In this document: positions 4,364-36,100 of the stretch, piece by piece
Layout of the letters: each line of letters opens with the position of its first letter
Numbering within the stretch: the stretch's first letter is position 1
IMG/VR virus record: IMGVR_UViG_2541047915_000010
Span: 1 to 37,037 of that record
DNA: 37,037 nucleotides
Reading direction: 5' to 3' (one strand)
Source of the DNA: a virus
Lineage: Duplodnaviria > Heunggongvirae > Uroviricota > Caudoviricetes
Position numbers and translations under genes: made by a program
Notes under the pieces: model-generated
What the model saw: the letters and a program-made list of their open reading frames with translations, nothing else
What the model was told of the DNA's origin: nothing
Databases searched by the model: none

Positions 4364-7186
4364 ATGACGGCAGAGTACATCAGGGACTGGCAACAACCGC
4401 GCCACGCAGTGGGGCGTGAAGGAACGGGGATCCCCGCTCCTGAATCCGCGCTTTCCTCCTGGCTGGATGCCTACCGGGCAGAGAACGAGCACCGCCAGGA
4501 AATGGCTGATGCGGCGTTCTCCGCCACGCCGCTGGGCAACCTGATTAATAAAAGCCTGGACGCACAGGAAAAACAGGACAAAACCATCACACTGGCAGGA
4601 GACGCCAGAAAACAGGCACGCGGCGCGGTGGATGAAGCCATGGCCTCGCTGCGCCTGCTGCCGTCCTATCTGCGCGATCCGCTTATTCGCCACCTCTCCT
4701 TCCTGCGCAAAAAACAGGAAGCCGATCGTCAGAAAGGAAAAAACGCCAGGCAGGCAGAACGCTATGCGCGTGGGACCCTGCGCAAAATATTCGAACGTCT
4801 GGAGCGCACCGATCACCGCTGGCTGACACCGGGTTATCGCTCCCTTGCCGGACGCGAACGCCTGGACGATTTGCTTTACCTGCCGCAGCTCAACAAACAC
4901 CAGATAAAGACGCTGGCAACCATGACGGCGGCGATGTTCAGCAGCACCTTCGAAAAACTCTGCGATGGCTTTGGCGCGACCGATGGCGAGCTGACCATGG
5001 ATGTAACCCTGAAGGCGTATCAGATGCTGGCCCGCATGGCGTTACACCTGCACGCCATGCCTCCACATTATGACGCACTGACAACAGACAAAGACCGGAG
5101 GAACGAACCGGACACGGAGCTGCTGCCGGGCGCAATCCTTCGCCTGACCTGTGCGGAATGGTGGAAACGCAAACTGTGGCTGTTACGTTGCGAGTGGAGA
5201 GAAGAACAACTCCGCGCCGCCTGTCTGGTTTCCAGAAAAACATCGCCCTATCTGAGCCAGGACGCGTTAAGCGAGTTTCGCGCACAGCGCGAGAAAACAC
5301 GCGATTTCCTGAAAAGTTTCATGCTGGAAAACGAAGACGGGTTCACGATTGATCTCGAGACAGTGTATTACGCGGGAGTAAGTAACCCGGTTCACCGTAA
5401 GGCAGAAATGATGGCCACCATGAAGGGACTGGAACTTCTGGCCGAAGCCCGTGGCGACAGAGCGGTGTTTCTGACTGTCACCTGCCCGTCAAAATACCAC
5501 GCAACAACGGAGAACGGTCATCCGAACCCCAAATGGAACGGGGCCACCATGCGCGACTCCAGCGATTACCTGGTTAACACGTTTTTTGCGGCGGTCCGCA
5601 AAAAACTGAACCGCGACGGCCTGCGCTGGTATGGCATCCGCACGGTGGAGCCTCACCATGACGGCACCGTGCACTGGCATATGATGGTCTTTGCTCATCC
5701 GGAAGAAATCGACAGCATCGTGACCATCACCCGCGATATTGCCATTCAGGAAGACCGCCACGAGCTGGGCAATGATATTACTCCGCGCTTTAAGGTGGAG
5801 TACGTCGACGGCACCAAAGGCACGCCAACCAGCTACATCGCCACCTACATCGGAAAAAACCTGGACAGCCGCGCCGTGGATGGCATCGACCCGAAAACGG
5901 GCAAACCACGCGTTGACCACGAAACCGGAAAATCAATGGCCGAGAGCGTGGAGCGCGCCATCGGTTGGGCACGCCTTCACCGGGTCCGCCAGTTCCAGTT
6001 CTTTGGCATCCCCTCCCGTCAGGTGTGGCGTGAACTCCGCCGCCTTGCCAGCCAGATGGCACGCAACCCGGAAGGCCCGCAACGGCTGAAGGATGACGCA
6101 ATGGATGCGGTACTCGCTGCCGCTGATGCCGGATGTTTTGCCACCTACATAGAGAAACAGGGCGGCGTACTTGTTCCACGCAAAGACTACCTGATTCGCA
6201 CCGCCTACGACCTCGCCGATGAGCTGAACGATTACGGCGAACAGAGTGTACAGATTTACGGGATCTGGTCACCACTCATCGGGGAATCCTCCCGTGTGTG
6301 CACGCACCCGGATAACTGGAAGCTGGTAAGACGTAAACCGGAACAGGAAGGCAGCGCCCACGAAAATGGTTTTGACCTTCAGGGCGGCCCTGCCGCCCCT
6401 TGGACTCGTGGCAATAACTGTCCCCGTGTACAGGAAACGGACAACAACGGGACAGAACAGCCGGAAGAACGGCCAGCACCGTGGCCGCAGCTCCCTGACA
6501 GCGTTGAAGTGAACGAATGGATGCGCTCACTAAAACGGCACGAACGCCGGGCGCTGATGCGTTCGCTTCGTGACAAACAGGCAAAAAACAGCAGTGATGA
6601 AATGCAGAGCTGGACACAGAGCCGCAAACAGCAGCGGCCTTTGCCTGATAACCACGAATTACTCGCTAAAGAATGGCGGGAGTCTGCTGAATCTCTCGGC
6701 CTGCATATCGGTGAACAGCAGATGCAGCACCTGTTACGGGGCGGCAGTCTGTACGTTGACGGCAGCATCATTGCACCGCAGGGATTTGAAATTGTACGCA
6801 AACCGGATACCCGCCCGGACAGCCGAATCACGCAGCTCTGGCAGCGCCTGAGCCGTAACCACGGCGTAAGCAGTACGGAGATCCGCCATAACCCGGTCGC
6901 CAGCTATCTGGAACAGCTGGGGACATTAGACCCCGAAGCCGCCGCACGCCTGGCATCCACACTTCAGCAAGACCAGAACACCATGAAAACACCCGTTACC
7001 GTGCTTTCTGACATGCTGCGCGCCATCCGCGACGCAGAGCACGCACAGAGAATCAGTGAAACCACTGAACGCGCCCGCCGCAAAGCAGACCTGCTGCGGG
7101 GTGGCCTGACCAGTGGAAACAAAAAACAGACAGAAACGGGATTCACAAATCCCGTAAATGAGCAAAAAACGCGCCGCGATATATGA
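4364..7186 (+). CDS. A: Rolling-circle replication initiator / nicking endonuclease (P2 gpA family)
   Basis: 940 aa; HUH motif region GTVHWHMMVF and tyrosine pair in TSYIATYIGKNLD, as in P2 A; position after the early genes. About 180 aa longer at the C-terminus than P2 A as I recall it. Confidence 0.85.
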   Translation: MTAEYIRDWQQPRHAVGREGTGIPAPESALSSWLDAYRAENEHRQEMADAAFSATPLGNLINKSLDAQEKQDKTITLAGDARKQARGAVDEAMASLRLLPSYLRDPLIRHLSFLRKKQEADRQKGKNARQAERYARGTLRKIFERLERTDHRWLTPGYRSLAGRERLDDLLYLPQLNKHQIKTLATMTAAMFSSTFEKLCDGFGATDGELTMDVTLKAYQMLARMALHLHAMPPHYDALTTDKDRRNEPDTELLPGAILRLTCAEWWKRKLWLLRCEWREEQLRAACLVSRKTSPYLSQDALSEFRAQREKTRDFLKSFMLENEDGFTIDLETVYYAGVSNPVHRKAEMMATMKGLELLAEARGDRAVFLTVTCPSKYHATTENGHPNPKWNGATMRDSSDYLVNTFFAAVRKKLNRDGLRWYGIRTVEPHHDGTVHWHMMVFAHPEEIDSIVTITRDIAIQEDRHELGNDITPRFKVEYVDGTKGTPTSYIATYIGKNLDSRAVDGIDPKTGKPRVDHETGKSMAESVERAIGWARLHRVRQFQFFGIPSRQVWRELRRLASQMARNPEGPQRLKDDAMDAVLAAADAGCFATYIEKQGGVLVPRKDYLIRTAYDLADELNDYGEQSVQIYGIWSPLIGESSRVCTHPDNWKLVRRKPEQEGSAHENGFDLQGGPAAPWTRGNNCPRVQETDNNGTEQPEERPAPWPQLPDSVEVNEWMRSLKRHERRALMRSLRDKQAKNSSDEMQSWTQSRKQQRPLPDNHELLAKEWRESAESLGLHIGEQQMQHLLRGGSLYVDGSIIAPQGFEIVRKPDTRPDSRITQLWQRLSRNHGVSSTEIRHNPVASYLEQLGTLDPEAAARLASTLQQDQNTMKTPVTVLSDMLRAIRDAEHAQRISETTERARRKADLLRGGLTSGNKKQTETGFTNPVNEQKTRRDI

Positions 7187-7232
7187 AGCGCGCATAAAAC
7201 AGGCAAAAACGGGATTTCAGAATCCCGTAAAC
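7135..7232. promoter_or_regulatory. Two copies of a 20-bp palindrome upstream of parM (candidate parC centromere/operator)
   Basis: acgggattcacaaatcccgt (7137-7155) and acgggatttcagaatcccgt (7211-7230), each within a repeated caaaaacgggatt...atcccgtaaa context, flanking an AT-rich stretch (atatat at 7179-7184). Confidence 0.4.
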
Positions 7233-7262
7233 GATTAATTAATCAACATAAGGAAAAGCGAC

Positions 7263-8222
7263 ATGAAAATTTGTATCGACGACGGCTCCACCAACATCAA
7301 GCTGGCATGGACTGAGAACGGCGAACGCCGCAACGCCATCAGCCCGAACAGCTTCAAGTCGGAATGGTCTGCGCCGTTCGGTGGCACGCAGCCCGCGAAC
7401 TACATGCTTGATGGCGTGCGCTATGGTTTTGATCCGGTCAGCGATCGCTTTGTCCAGACGACCGACACGCAATACCAGTACAGCGATGTGAATGTCATTG
7501 CCATTCATCACGCGCTGGTCAAATCAGGCATCACACCACAGGAGGTGGATGTGGTTGTCACCCTGCCACTGAGCGAGTATTTCGACACAAACGCACAGCC
7601 GGACATGGCCAACATCAACCGCAAAAAAGCGAACGTTATGCGCCCGGTGGAGTACCAGAACGGCGAGGCATTCACTATCCGTAACGTGCGGGTTATGCCT
7701 GAGTCCATTCCGGCTGGCTTTAAGGCACTGGCTGACATGAGTCCGTTTGAATCCCTGCTGATTGTGGATTTGGGCGGAACCACGCTGGATGTGGCAAAGG
7801 TTCAGGGGCAACTGGCAGGTATCAGCCAGGTGTTTTGCGATCCACACGTAGGCGTTTCTCTGATGGCCGATGCCGTACTGTCAGTGATGGCCACTAACGG
7901 TATGCGCACCAGTCACCACATCGCCAATACCATTATCGAACATCGCCATGATGAAGCCTGGCTGCGCCAGCACATCCACAATGACGCGCATTACGCCAGC
8001 CTGATGGCGGTTATTCGTGAAAAGGAAGAAACACTGAAACAACGCGTGATCCGCGCGCTGGCGGTTTTTTCGGGTTACGGGCGGGTGATGGTTGTCGGTG
8101 GAGGGGCGGAGATTGTGGCACCCGCTATCCGCGAAGCCTGCGGAGTTAATGCGACTTTCATCGCGGACGGGGTGCCACAGTTTGCTCTGGTTAATGGGCT
8201 GTACGCAATGGACAAGGAGTAA
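7263..8222 (+). CDS. parM: Actin-like segregation ATPase ParM/StbA (type II partition)
   Basis: 319 aa; N-terminal phosphate-1 motif MKICIDDGSTNIKLAW and DLGGTTLD, VGGGAE motifs; strong collinear similarity to plasmid R1 ParM as I recall it; RBS AAGGAAA upstream. Confidence 0.85.
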   Translation: MKICIDDGSTNIKLAWTENGERRNAISPNSFKSEWSAPFGGTQPANYMLDGVRYGFDPVSDRFVQTTDTQYQYSDVNVIAIHHALVKSGITPQEVDVVVTLPLSEYFDTNAQPDMANINRKKANVMRPVEYQNGEAFTIRNVRVMPESIPAGFKALADMSPFESLLIVDLGGTTLDVAKVQGQLAGISQVFCDPHVGVSLMADAVLSVMATNGMRTSHHIANTIIEHRHDEAWLRQHIHNDAHYASLMAVIREKEETLKQRVIRALAVFSGYGRVMVVGGGAEIVAPAIREACGVNATFIADGVPQFALVNGLYAMDKE

Positions 8223-8226
8223 ACCA

Positions 8227-8538
8227 ATGACGACACCAACCAGACGGATAAGTTTCTATCTGAAGCCTGCGGCCGTCAAGAACGAAAGCGAAGCATGCGC
8301 CTGGCTGGACAGCCTTACACCAGAAGCCCGCAAAAGCGGCCAACGCGTGGCTTTTCTGGCCGGGCTGGCACTTCTGAAAATGAATCCAGCAGAGGCTTAC
8401 CGACTGGCTGCATGGGCTGACGATGAGGCGTTATCAGTGACACAAACCAGGACAGAATGCCCCGCGTCACAGCCAGTATCAACCGCACAGATAACCAGTC
8501 AGATGGCCGGAAATATCCGGGCGTTATTTCCCGAATAA
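8227..8538 (+). CDS. parR: ParR/StbB-like centromere-binding adaptor
   Basis: ORF 8092-8538 trimmed to the ATG at 8227 (AAGGAG RBS 8 nt upstream); 103 aa; RRISFYLKPAAVKNESEACAWLDSLTPEARKSGQRVAFLAGLAL parallels the R1 ParR N-terminal RHH region; directly downstream of parM. Confidence 0.75.
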   Translation: MTTPTRRISFYLKPAAVKNESEACAWLDSLTPEARKSGQRVAFLAGLALLKMNPAEAYRLAAWADDEALSVTQTRTECPASQPVSTAQITSQMAGNIRALFPE

Positions 8539-8544
8539 CACAAC

Positions 8545-8566
8545 ATCAGGGCGCATCCGCCCTGAT
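8545..8566 (+). terminator. Hairpin after parR (possible terminator)
   Basis: Perfect 9-bp stem atcagggcg / cgccctgat with a 4-nt loop; the downstream T-tract is weak. Confidence 0.35.
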
Positions 8567-8636
8567 GACTTTAATCCGGGAACATAAACAAGGGGGACAC
8601 AATGCAACACATTGACAGAGAAAAAGGAAAAAAAGC

Positions 8637-9044
8637 ATGAACAGAAAACAGAAACAAGAGTTGAAATACTTCTTACGTAAAGAAATTGCCAGGCTTGAAG
8701 ATGCAGAGTCACAATCATCAGAAATTCCGTTCGGAATGGATATCAACGACGCCCGTATGCTTCAGGCATACCGTATAGCTCAGGCTGCACTACAGACAAA
8801 ACCGTTAAATAACATACATGAAAAGTATGATTATTTTACGGATACCGCTTGCTTGCTGACATCTGAAGAACAAAAGATAGCCCAACTTTTAGGCGACGCA
8901 TGGAACCTGTATTTAACATTGCCAGTTGAGCATCCAATGGGTAGAGATGAATTTTGCCGGGCAATTCATCATTGCCAAAATATGGTGTTGGCACGCCCGG
9001 CCATCAGGGCGTTGGCCAGGAAGGGGCAAGGCTATAAAAGATAA
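8637..9044 (+). CDS. Hypothetical protein (cargo of the A-to-cos variable region)
   Basis: 135-aa ORF with an AAAGGA RBS, followed by a strong terminator; no motif recognised. Confidence 0.5.
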   Translation: MNRKQKQELKYFLRKEIARLEDAESQSSEIPFGMDINDARMLQAYRIAQAALQTKPLNNIHEKYDYFTDTACLLTSEEQKIAQLLGDAWNLYLTLPVEHPMGRDEFCRAIHHCQNMVLARPAIRALARKGQGYKR

Positions 9045-9046
9045 GT

Positions 9047-9078
9047 AAAACGCCCTCCTCCAGGGCGTTTATTTCAAT
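9047..9078 (+). terminator. Rho-independent terminator
   Basis: Stem aaacgccct / agggcgttt with loop cctcc, followed by atttc T-rich tail. Confidence 0.6.
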
Positions 9079-29417: not shown

Positions 29418-29924
29418 TCCCGCTGCGAAGTGCCGCCCGCTCACGCCAGCTAACCACTTCGCCGGGCGTCATCATGAAGATTTCGGCGGGCGACCAGTTA
29501 AAAATAACGGCAATATCTGCCACAAAGTCTTCTATGTGCTCAAAGCACACAACCGTGATCAGGCTTCCGTCACCTGTTCGTTCTTCCCGCCAGAGTCCGC
29601 ACCGCTCAAAAAATTTACGGCAACCACACATAACTGAATAAAGTCACGGGATGCCATTTTTTTGATCGTCACTTCATCCAGTCGCGGTGATGTCACGCGT
29701 GACAGCAGCGTAAACATGGATTCCGCTTTCAGATTCAGCACATCAGACAGCGACAAATCTCGCAGAGATCCAGCCTGCTCAATAGCCCCGGTGATCTCCA
29801 CATACGTGATTTTTTCGCCGCCTCGCTCAATGGGTTGGGTAAGTTTTACGCCACGCTCACTGGTTTCTTTCACAGTGTCAGCAACTACCGTGTTTTCGGT
29901 ATCGATGTTTTTCGTCTCTTTCAT
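29395..29924 (-). CDS. E+E' frameshift fusion product (programmed -1 frameshift)
   Basis: The -1 frame ORF 29395-29631 overlaps the 3' end of E; slippery heptamer TTTTTTG on the coding strand at 29607-29613, as in P2 E/E' and other tail chaperone pairs. Confidence 0.6.
29559..29924 (-). CDS. E: Tail assembly chaperone E
   Basis: 121-aa ORF between FII and T, as P2 gpE. Confidence 0.75.
   Translation of the reverse strand: MKETKNIDTENTVVADTVKETSERGVKLTQPIERGGEKITYVEITGAIEQAGSLRDLSLSDVLNLKAESMFTLLSRVTSPRLDEVTIKKMASRDFIQLCVVAVNFLSGADSGGKNEQVTEA
29607..29613 (-). promoter_or_regulatory. Slippery heptamer T-TTT-TTG for the E/E' -1 ribosomal frameshift
   Basis: Plus strand caaaaaa = minus strand ttttttg; in E frame ..aat ttt ttg.., E' frame ..aaa ttt ttt gag.. 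Confidence 0.6.
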
Positions 29925-33106: not shown

Positions 33107-33190
33107 AGTCCATCCCGTCCAAGGGAATATGACTCAATAGTAAAAGTTCCAGTTTAGTTAGTAGACCCACACTTTATAGAAGAGTAATTC

Positions 33191-36100
33191 ATGATTGGAC
33201 AATTTTTAAGTGCAACAGAGATTTTAGCAAAGAACTATGTTCGTAATAAAATGGTTAAAAATCCATTTTATTCGAATTTAAAATGGAATTTTATTGAAAA
33301 AAACATCATAAGATTAACATCCTCACCGGTTAAATCAGTACTTTGCATATCAGCTTTTTCATTTGTACTACTTTATGTTGGATATTTAAACGAATTATTT
33401 ATAAAAAATAATCTTTTACATTATTTCCCGTTTAGGCATTCATTAACCGAATGGCAAACAACCATTTTAAGTGGCCAATTGACAATTATTGGTATTGTAT
33501 ACCCCCTTGTTATAGGTTTAGTAAGTGTCTTATTCCAAAAAAAGGCAGATAGAAAAATAGCCCAAACTGCTTATCAGCGTTACTCAGGATTCATGCTTGC
33601 TGGACTCAGCGGGCTTTTCTTATCAGGATTTATACTTCTCAGTGTACTAATTAAAACTGTCTTTGGAAGTTATCTTTATGGTATAGCTTGTCTAATCAGC
33701 ATATTATGGCTTTTGATAAACATAGTTCTTTCTATTTGGTTCTTTATCGTGAGTCTTGAAATTCTTGATGATGTAAAACGGCAAATAATTATAAAGCGAT
33801 ACATTGCCTTCGAAATAGTAATGCCCCATATTTGTAACAAAATCTCAGCCAAGCTTAGGTTATACCCTATCTATCAAAAACATAACTATTCAAATTTAGA
33901 AATCAAGCAAGCCGATTACAAAGGAGAATACATATCTGTGGCTAGCGGTTATTCTAAGGAAGATGAGTTAAGTTTATATCACCGTCCTTTTCAACTTACT
34001 CTTAATCTTATTAATTGCCAACTAAAAAAGAAGAATCATTTTGCGTCATTTGTCATTGGTGATAATCGTGCAAAAGAAACAGAATCCACGGGTAAGATAC
34101 TTTTTAGCGTTAAAAATATCAAACCAGACAGCTTATTAATAAAAATACTTAAGCAATGTTTTTATAGGGCTCCGATTAAAGGAGGAGATTTTTCCGTAAG
34201 TCTTACAATGCAGGCTATAACAGCAGATACGTATATGTATCTGCGGGATTCTGATCTCATTAGTTTTGACGATGCTATCTCTGCATTAATTAATAACTTT
34301 AATAATCTCTGCGATTTGTATTTTTTTCAAGATGATAATACCAACAATAACTTCTTACTGATCACTACAGAATTATTTGAACGGAGTTTTCAATATGAGT
34401 TTTCAGATGAAGTTTATAAAATATCAAATAATTCCATGGATAAAATTAATCTTTCTGAAAGATTTTTTGAATTATGTCTTTGGAGCGGAGTGCGTATTAT
34501 CAATAATAGAAAACATCTTATCAGCAATGAACTTTGTATCTATATGGGAATTACTCGTTCACAATGGTCAATATTAACAGAATGGTTCCGAAACAACCAA
34601 TCACTCTTAAATGCCTCGCTTCGTTCACGTTATAATCGTATATTAAGAACCTATACCACTGTTTGGGAGCAATATCAAGAAAGCATAAACTTTCGTTTCT
34701 GCAATACAGAGAATTCAGATTTATTTGAATTATTTTGCAAAACGCAACTACAAGAACTTCCATCGATGATTATTGATGCAACACAGACTCGCGATCCTTC
34801 TACTATTGATACAGCCGTCGATCTTATTAACCGATGGCAGCACTCAATGAATATTGACAGCCATTCGGTAGAAAAATACAGTTACAAAGGCCAGCTTTTT
34901 AACCCGGGTTTTTTCATATCCAAAAAACTAAACTTCAATTCAGACAGAGAGTGGTTCAATATTGCCATCATAAATGCGTTGACTGACATGCGTATATGCA
35001 CATGTCTTTATCTGACATCAAGAATCAATACTTCTGACAAACTAATGACACATTACATTAAACTTATTTTAGAGGGTAAACTTATTGACCAAACCGGTGG
35101 ATATGAAACTCCCACTGAAGAAATTGATAATGCAAGCCAACTAATCAAGATATTAATTAGAATCTGCCTGTGGACATGGTCTGAAAATATGGAGCATAAT
35201 GGGTGGATGAATAGTTTAGCAAGGCGTTTACGTGACTATGATAAAACAGACATGGTGATGGGCAGAGTTTACAGTAATGTTTTTGACTGTGGATTTATTG
35301 ATATGGAACAATCATGGGTTCAGCTATTATTAATTTTTTCTAACAAGAACGATAGCGTATCAAAAGAAATAAAAGAAGCAATAGAAAACAACTATATAAC
35401 ATATCGTGAGAAGCAACGACTCATTGGAGTATTATCAAAAATTTGTAACTCCATCGAATACACTAAAATCAAGCTGACTTTAACATTGGACGATCTCCAA
35501 ACAAAAAAAGAAAACTTAAGAAAGTTGCTTCAAGAGCATATTAACATGCTAAAGAAAGATCTTGATATGAGACTTCAGGATGCTGCCATAGATGTACATC
35601 GACTAGATAGCACTGCACGTAAAACATCAGAACATCTTCGTAAACGCATCAAGAAAACGCTCCCTCTTTCACTTTTCAAATCTATTGATTTTAAGCAGGC
35701 TAGCGATTGTTTCACAAAACATAAGATATCTATTAAGATAGATAAAGAACCGTATGCCGAAGGAATAGAATCCATCCCTTATATCAATGAAGGTGATATT
35801 CAAGCAGACTTAATTCTCAAGGACATCCAGAGAATAATACTTTCAAATTTATTTAGCACTGGCTGTTCGCAACATACCGTAATAGAAGATTTCAATATGT
35901 TGATTGATCACATAAAATCATCTGCTGACTTGGCTGGCAAACTGGTTCTTGTGATGAGTAAAGAGATCTTTCAGCAATATAATCGTATGCTTTTCGATAA
36001 TCCCAACCTCAGAGAACTAATGAGAAAAAATGATGATGGCTCTATGAACATAACTACTGAATCCGGTACCTGTAAGGTTTACTTCTTACCATTTGTTAAT

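Follow-up and report, generated by a model that had tools for sequence, protein, structure and literature searches.

Twin palindromes upstream of parM in a P88-like prophage: a candidate ParR-binding site of non-canonical layout

Type II partition is textbook plasmid machinery, and its centromeres are described as iteron arrays arranged around an autoregulated promoter. In plasmid R1, parC is a strongly curved site of 159 bp in which two sets of five direct 11-bp iterons lie around a 39-bp core with an autoregulated promoter, and one ParR dimer is bound per iteron (PMC2241845). In this study, we analyzed the 37,037-nt DNA of IMG/VR record IMGVR_UViG_2541047915_000010 (the whole stretch is hereafter called the window), which is a P88-like (Xuanwuvirus, P2-family) prophage with the gene order A, parM, and parR. 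Upstream of parM, two 20-bp palindromes are embedded in a pair of 42-nt direct repeats. We propose with moderate confidence, on the basis of sequence comparison, that the region enclosing them may be the cis-acting ParR-binding site (a parC-like, non-canonical centromere) of the type II ParMRC module of this prophage. No paper on parC or ParR of P88 or Xuanwuvirus, or on the cis site of this par module, was found in the literature. The features that the argument uses are as follows.

4364–7186, plus strand: replication gene A (940 amino acids; Phage_GPA), whose 3′ tail covers palindrome 1
7116–7245, no strand assigned: candidate parC-like region, with A-tracts phased at about 10–10.75 bp, enclosing both palindromes
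7120–7161, plus strand: direct-repeat unit 1 (42 nt), consisting of the A-tract leader CAAAAAACAGACAGAA, then palindrome 1, then TAAATGA
7136–7155, no strand assigned: palindrome 1, ACGGGATT-CACA-AATCCCGT, perfect (8 + 4 + 8), in the last codons of gene A
7163–7192, no strand assigned: central spacer CAAAAAACGCGCCGCGATATATGAAGCGCG, with CGCGC/GCGCG blocks around ATATAT, polymorphic among natural variants and without a convincing promoter
7193–7234, plus strand: direct-repeat unit 2 (42 nt), 81% identical to unit 1 and 73 bp downstream of it
7209–7228, no strand assigned: palindrome 2, ACGGGATT-TCAG-AATCCCGT, perfect (8 + 4 + 8), intergenic
7263–8222, plus strand: parM, actin-like segregation ATPase (319 amino acids; StbA_N, 1.8e-82; ParM C-terminal domain, 6.3e-69)
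8227–8538, plus strand: parR, adaptor/centromere-binding protein (103 amino acids; Plasmid_stab_B, 1.7e-24)

By its proteins, the par locus belongs to the type II ParMRC family. Besides its Pfam matches, ParM matched the structures of R1 ParM (1mwk, E 8e-93) and was about 47% identical to R1-type ParM. ParR belonged to the same Pfam family as its counterpart in the R1/NR1 parMRC (stbAB) system and had a similar N-terminal strand and C-terminal tail, and the order cis site, parM, and parR was the same in both systems. These matches bear out the parM and parR calls of a first-pass annotation of this DNA. The N-terminal MTTPTRRISFYLKP and the C-terminal NIxxLFPE of ParR were conserved, and the N-terminus and the C-terminal N..LFP motif were kept in common with plasmid ParRs. 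A comparison of ParR with PDB sequences gave no match. The AlphaFold2 monomer of ParR, which is unreliable (predicted local distance difference test score, pLDDT, of 58), contained helices at 20–29, 32–52, and, at the C-terminus, 86–100, compatible with a ribbon-helix-helix (RHH) fold. The segment at 6900–8600 was 94–98% identical to Escherichia phage P88, PhiR44_2, and Citrobacter phage phiSM.

The first-pass annotation had reported two matching palindromes that bracket a stretch before parM, and both were found to be perfect copies. Palindrome 1 is located 10–17 codons ahead of the A stop codon (7184–7186), in agreement with the reported overlap with the final codons of A, and 34 nt separate the 3′ end of palindrome 2 from the parM ATG (7263). 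The two copies are near each other as stated, with a start-to-start spacing of 73 bp, not 74 bp, and a gap of 53 bp; the repeat pair (7120–7234) stops 28 nt short of parM. The description of the bracketed stretch as AT-rich was partly right: its GC content is 43%, compared with 51% for the window, but it holds the GC blocks CGCGCCGCG and GCGCGC, which flank ATATAT. The context of copy 1, given as caaaaacggg, is actually cagaaacggg.

A search for the same palindrome elsewhere in the genome had been suggested in that annotation. The pattern ACGGGATT-N4-AATCCCGT, with up to three mismatches, matched just these two sites in the 37-kb window, where 0.18 matches were expected. The window contained about 12 distinct perfect palindromes with 8-bp arms (21 including nested ones; 4.3 in shuffles), and this pair was the only one among them to have arm sequences in common. 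A repeat search around parM and parR found no second repeat array near the par genes.

The A-tract phasing of approximately 10.5 bp at this site was the strongest in the 37 kb, the top four of 1476 segments of 147 nt starting at 7076–7151. The regions upstream of parM in R1-like and IncL/M loci gave a comparable phasing signal. In the R1-like, IncL/M, IncF, Apirhabdus, and Klebsiella chromosomal loci, 10–11-bp direct A-/T-tract repeats upstream of parM flank a central promoter-like stretch, and the repeat-to-repeat spacing was 72–73 bp in the IncL/M and R1-like loci versus 73 bp in the phage region. Like R1/NR1 parC, the phage cis region is bipartite and rich in A-tracts with ~10.5-bp phasing, and GGG/CCC-plus-A-tract units are present in both. 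The palindrome itself was absent upstream of parM in 50 non-P88-type loci from GTDB species representatives and in five plasmid loci. Elsewhere in the window, the second-strongest A/T-tract phasing was observed at 33176–33290, together with two adjacent palindromes with 8-bp arms (33247 and 33263) and promoter-like sites; this may be a regulatory or attachment-site region.

The element was retained in a Hafnia relative (ParR 75% and ParM 95% identical), which kept the GGGATT-N4-AATCCC cores, the 73-bp spacing, and the A-tract leaders, and in which a 22-nt block, AAAACAGGCAAAAACGGGATTT, was identical. The stop codon of the Hafnia A gene falls inside palindrome 1; therefore, the constraint is on the DNA element and not on the coding tail of A. 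In Serratia-type P2-like phages (four loci; ParM 58% identical), the gene upstream of parM encodes a Dam-like methyltransferase and is not A. Their par loci are similar to the P88-type locus in having phage-borne parM and parR genes, A-tract-phased upstream DNA, a AAAAACGGGA motif, inverted repeats, and a weak promoter or none, but they do not have the GGGATT-N4-AATCCC palindromes and carry a long inverted repeat, GGGAACGAnAnAGAAAAA ... TTTTTCTnTTTC, instead. The A-tract+CGGGA motif is common to the two phage types, and it is tied to the par module because parM follows the methyltransferase gene, not A, in the Serratia-type phages.

The promoter search combined a consensus scan with a simple scoring matrix. 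In 7090–7262, the best sigma-70-like score was 3.1, and no site reached 9 of 12 consensus matches, whereas the same scoring gave 7.8–12.3 in the eight non-phage relatives scored. The first-pass annotation had proposed a parC centromere/operator at this place. Its centromere-like part is supported circumstantially by position, phasing, and conservation in Hafnia, but its operator part, in which ParR would bind around its own promoter, is unsupported because no sigma-70-like promoter is located between or after the palindromes. With a strong early-promoter-like site far upstream and no plus-strand terminator between A and parM, parMR is most simply regarded as part of the early operon, and it is probably transcribed together with A from the early promoter. 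A promoter-like sequence, TTGACA-18-TAAGCT (score 11.6), lies at 1928–1957, and a perfect palindrome, GGTGTACT-TATA-AGTACACC, comes after it at 1967–1986; the segment 1928–1986 is probably an early promoter with an immunity operator.

ParR alleles in the prophage family ranged from 97% down to 42% identity, all of them in the A-parM-parR context, and the palindromes were present with every allele, as recognition by ParR would allow. The beta-strand region RRISFYLKP was invariant across these alleles, which fits a conserved site. The ParR linker, in the 3′ half of parR, was hypervariable, with a nucleotide diversity of 0.16–0.36 at 8263–8538 versus 0.005–0.042 in parM, although this comparison is weak because the loci were picked as the best ParM matches, which biases the parM diversity downward. 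Diversifying selection or a frequent exchange of alleles may account for the variability of the linker.

The palindromes were compared among 70 distinct natural variants. The GG/CC cores were invariant in all 70, and substitutions were observed at 7142 (T>C, 18/70), 7209 (A>G, 35/70), and 7226 (C>T, 16/70). The half-site substitutions A1>G and G3>A recurred in left and right arms, on different strands. Since the same half-site changes occur in both arms, the G·U-compatible strand is opposite for the two palindromes, and there is thus no consistent RNA signal. The variant pattern agrees better with degenerate half-sites for a protein on double-stranded DNA than with an RNA hairpin of one particular strand.

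We read 7116–7245 as a candidate parC because it adjoins parM and parR on their upstream side, contains the sole repeat array there, shows the strongest phasing, is conserved in Hafnia, and occurs with an invariant ParR N-terminus. Several observations weigh against this reading. The cis site departs from R1-type parC in two defining respects, as it has neither clusters of direct iterons nor a promoter embedded between them. It consists of two 20-bp palindromes instead of two sets of five direct 11-bp iterons, with four clear half-sites only plus loosely similar AAAC units, and it is without a sigma-70-like promoter, while R1 has a strong promoter between the iterons. The nucleotide diversity of the palindrome region (0.04–0.065) was no lower than that of the adjoining A coding sequence. 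No covariation was found between ParR allele type and palindrome variants, both main N-terminal types occurring with several variants, although this test is without power because the DNA-reading strand is invariant. Of 5426 complete E. coli genomes, 1303 contained the 171-bp palindrome region, which occupied 1440 positions on chromosomes and two on plasmids; the prophage is thus nearly always chromosomal, and its need for partition is therefore not obvious. The main argument that the palindrome itself may not be what ParR reads comes from the Serratia-type phages, in which the ParR strand RKISFYLKP is nearly the same as RRISFYLKP and yet no GGGATT palindromes are present. The unit read by ParR may instead be the common A-tract+CGGGA half-site. 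The phage site also differs from the R1 par locus in overlapping the end of the upstream gene and in being carried by an integrated prophage, not a plasmid.

Arc and Mnt of phage P22 are RHH repressors that act on palindromic operators, the heptads bound by the omega protein are direct or inverted, and RHH proteins accept inverted and direct repeats alike. The phage palindromes are similar to the Arc and Mnt operators in that a dyad of roughly 20 bp, with subsites about one helical turn apart, suits two RHH dimers. Arc, Mnt, and omega, however, are transcriptional repressors at promoters, whereas the phage ParR, for which the RHH fold is putative, would be a partition adaptor, and no promoter is evident at its candidate site.

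We infer ParR binding, its stoichiometry, and its segregation function as follows. Two ParR RHH dimers would bind head-to-head on each 20-bp palindrome, with the GGATT/AATCC subsites about 10 bp apart in an Arc/Mnt-type arrangement. The two palindromes, 73 bp or about seven helical turns apart, would be on the same face of curved, A-tract-phased DNA, and ParR could possibly spread cooperatively to the AAAC-type units in the flanks, which are weaker. The conserved C-terminal helix of ParR would catch the ends of ParM filaments, by which circular phage DNA, excised or replicating, would be moved. Transcribed with A from the early promoter, parMR would be expressed once immunity is lifted and would not be autoregulated. 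It is possible, although we advance this more tentatively than the binding site itself, that the prophage has a working actin-type segregation machine whose centromere, in place of an iteron array, is formed by two Arc-like palindromic ParR sites that lie on curved DNA and have no promoter; co-expressed with the replication genes, this machine might serve to position or partition phage circles that replicate after excision, or to sustain a transient carrier state like that of a plasmid, and not to maintain a plasmid.

The palindromes can also be explained in other ways, which are not mutually exclusive. They could be tandem Rho-independent terminators that act leftward, on the minus strand, and either shield the replication/early operon from antisense transcripts that run through parMR or set the end of a short antisense RNA begun near the parM start; we regard this as unlikely. 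The hairpin formed by each palindrome has an energy of about −10 to −11 kcal/mol on either strand, and on the minus strand each GC-containing 8-bp stem (−10.2 kcal/mol) runs straight into a T-rich tail, TTTTTGCCTGTTTT and TTCTGTCTGTTTTTT, respectively, that is kept in Hafnia. However, apart from a weak promoter-like site at 7294–7266 (score 4.67), no minus-strand gene or convincing promoter feeding the palindromes was found, two better-placed terminator-like hairpins are already present at 9070–9048 and 8567–8544, and the frequent 7209 A>G and 7226 C>T changes give C·A mismatches in minus-strand hairpin 2. Serratia-type relatives do not have such hairpins, and the T-run is equally accounted for as an A-tract of parC-like DNA. 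The possibility that the palindromes merely terminate A, which the first-pass annotation had named as a refutation of its proposal, was rejected because the plus-strand stems lead into AAATGAGC and AAACGATT with no U-run and the terminator scan called these stems on the minus strand only. It is improbable that the palindromes act as RNA stem-loops, either two local hairpins or a single long-range pairing, in the plus-strand polycistronic early mRNA at the A-parM junction and thereby influence its stability, its processing, or relative expression. Both hairpins would be part of one mRNA, as the A-parM junction has no promoter, and the palindromes, being identical, can also pair with each other. 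The plus-strand fold of 7120–7262 had an energy of −36.8 kcal/mol (z = −6.4), but this low value follows automatically from two identical palindromes. Every substitution in palindrome 2 retains G·U pairing on the plus strand, whereas changes in palindrome 1 (7142 T>C and also those at 7155 and 7138) break plus-strand pairs. Across the 70 variants, there were no compensatory changes inside either local hairpin; three possible compensatory pairs of co-occurring changes, 7155C/7209G, 7150C/7214G (in one locus), and 7138A/7226T, fit long-range pairing between palindromes 1 and 2 or a dyad-symmetric complex, but they represent about three lineages. A known RNA family was rejected, as no Rfam family matched at the gathering threshold and just a spurious plant miRNA match appeared at E<=5.

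A comparably low probability is assigned to binding by a protein other than ParR, such as a phage regulator, the C-terminal domain of A, or a host factor, or to an accessory replication element, for example a lagging-strand initiation hairpin on displaced single-stranded DNA. Palindrome 1 lies within A, and the origin of P2-family phages is inside this gene; the homolog of the P2 nick site, however, is located about 740 bp upstream of the palindromes. No P88-type A gene without parMR was found in the phage collection, and since A and parMR are linked in every close relative, the element is not assignable to either of them by co-occurrence. No enrichment of the half-site was seen in other parts of the prophage, the immunity region among them, which speaks against this explanation, and the palindrome is not known to match any consensus sequence of a host operator. 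Least probable of all is a recent local duplication without a function of its own. The element is a simple direct repeat, and its diversity is similar to that of the flanking coding DNA, but its architecture and spacing are shared by E. coli and Hafnia despite diverged flanks, the cores do not vary, and the helical phasing is extreme for the window.

The significance of the candidate parC lies in its setting. A close ParM/ParR pair is present in an integrated P2-like prophage of about a quarter of complete E. coli genomes, and the only candidate centromere there is laid out differently from the known ones: it is a pair of palindromes that has no promoter and partly coincides with the replication gene. 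ParR binding at this site would extend the range of known parC architectures and would raise the question which DNA is segregated by an integrated prophage, namely circles that replicate after induction or an episome in a carrier state. Without such binding, the palindromes would be an ordinary hairpin pair, and the true centromere would still have to be found. The existence of a 34.5-kb circular record of this phage type bears on the episomal state. This record, NZ_CP148288.1 in PLSDB, is a 34,461-bp circular non-mobilizable "plasmid" with 45 annotated features from E. coli isolated from a cat, and it carries the same A-parM-parR segment with 98.9% identity. It seems to represent the complete genome of a P88-like phage that was recovered in episomal form.

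The replication origin of the prophage is likely located inside A, at the following element.

6384–6421 (about), plus strand: homolog of the P2 ori nick site, inside A, with GCGGC..CGCCGC.CCT.GGA.TC.TG.CAATAACTGT conserved

It was located by use of the nick site in the annotated rep_origin of P2 (record position 29892). With this clear ori homolog at 6384–6421, the palindromes were rejected as the P2-type nick site of A. The A coding region also contains a perfect 24-nt palindrome, TTTTTTGCGG-CGGT-CCGCAAAAAA, at 5582–5605.

Downstream of parR, one open reading frame (ORF) precedes the portal and terminase genes, which are on the minus strand.

8637–9044: ORF of unassigned function, between parR and the portal/terminase genes

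The two terminator-like hairpins mentioned above are strong and flank this ORF. The hairpin after parR, CATCAGGGCG-CATC-CGCCCTGATG, is at 8544–8567, and that after the ORF, AAACGCCCT-CCTCC-AGGGCGTTT, is at 9048–9070; both are terminator-like on the minus strand. The cargo between parR and the portal gene varied among relatives. It consisted of a 167-amino-acid ORF and an Ogr/Delta-like gene, of minus-strand genes for 280 and 165 (DUF4760) amino acids, or of insertion sequence fragments, and the interval looks like a hotspot of moron insertion. The same prophage segment was also observed in a 226-kb contig of Vagococcus sp. WN89Y, which is labeled as Firmicutes, with ParM 98% and the portal protein 99.7% identical; this copy is likely due to contamination or a mislabeled assembly.

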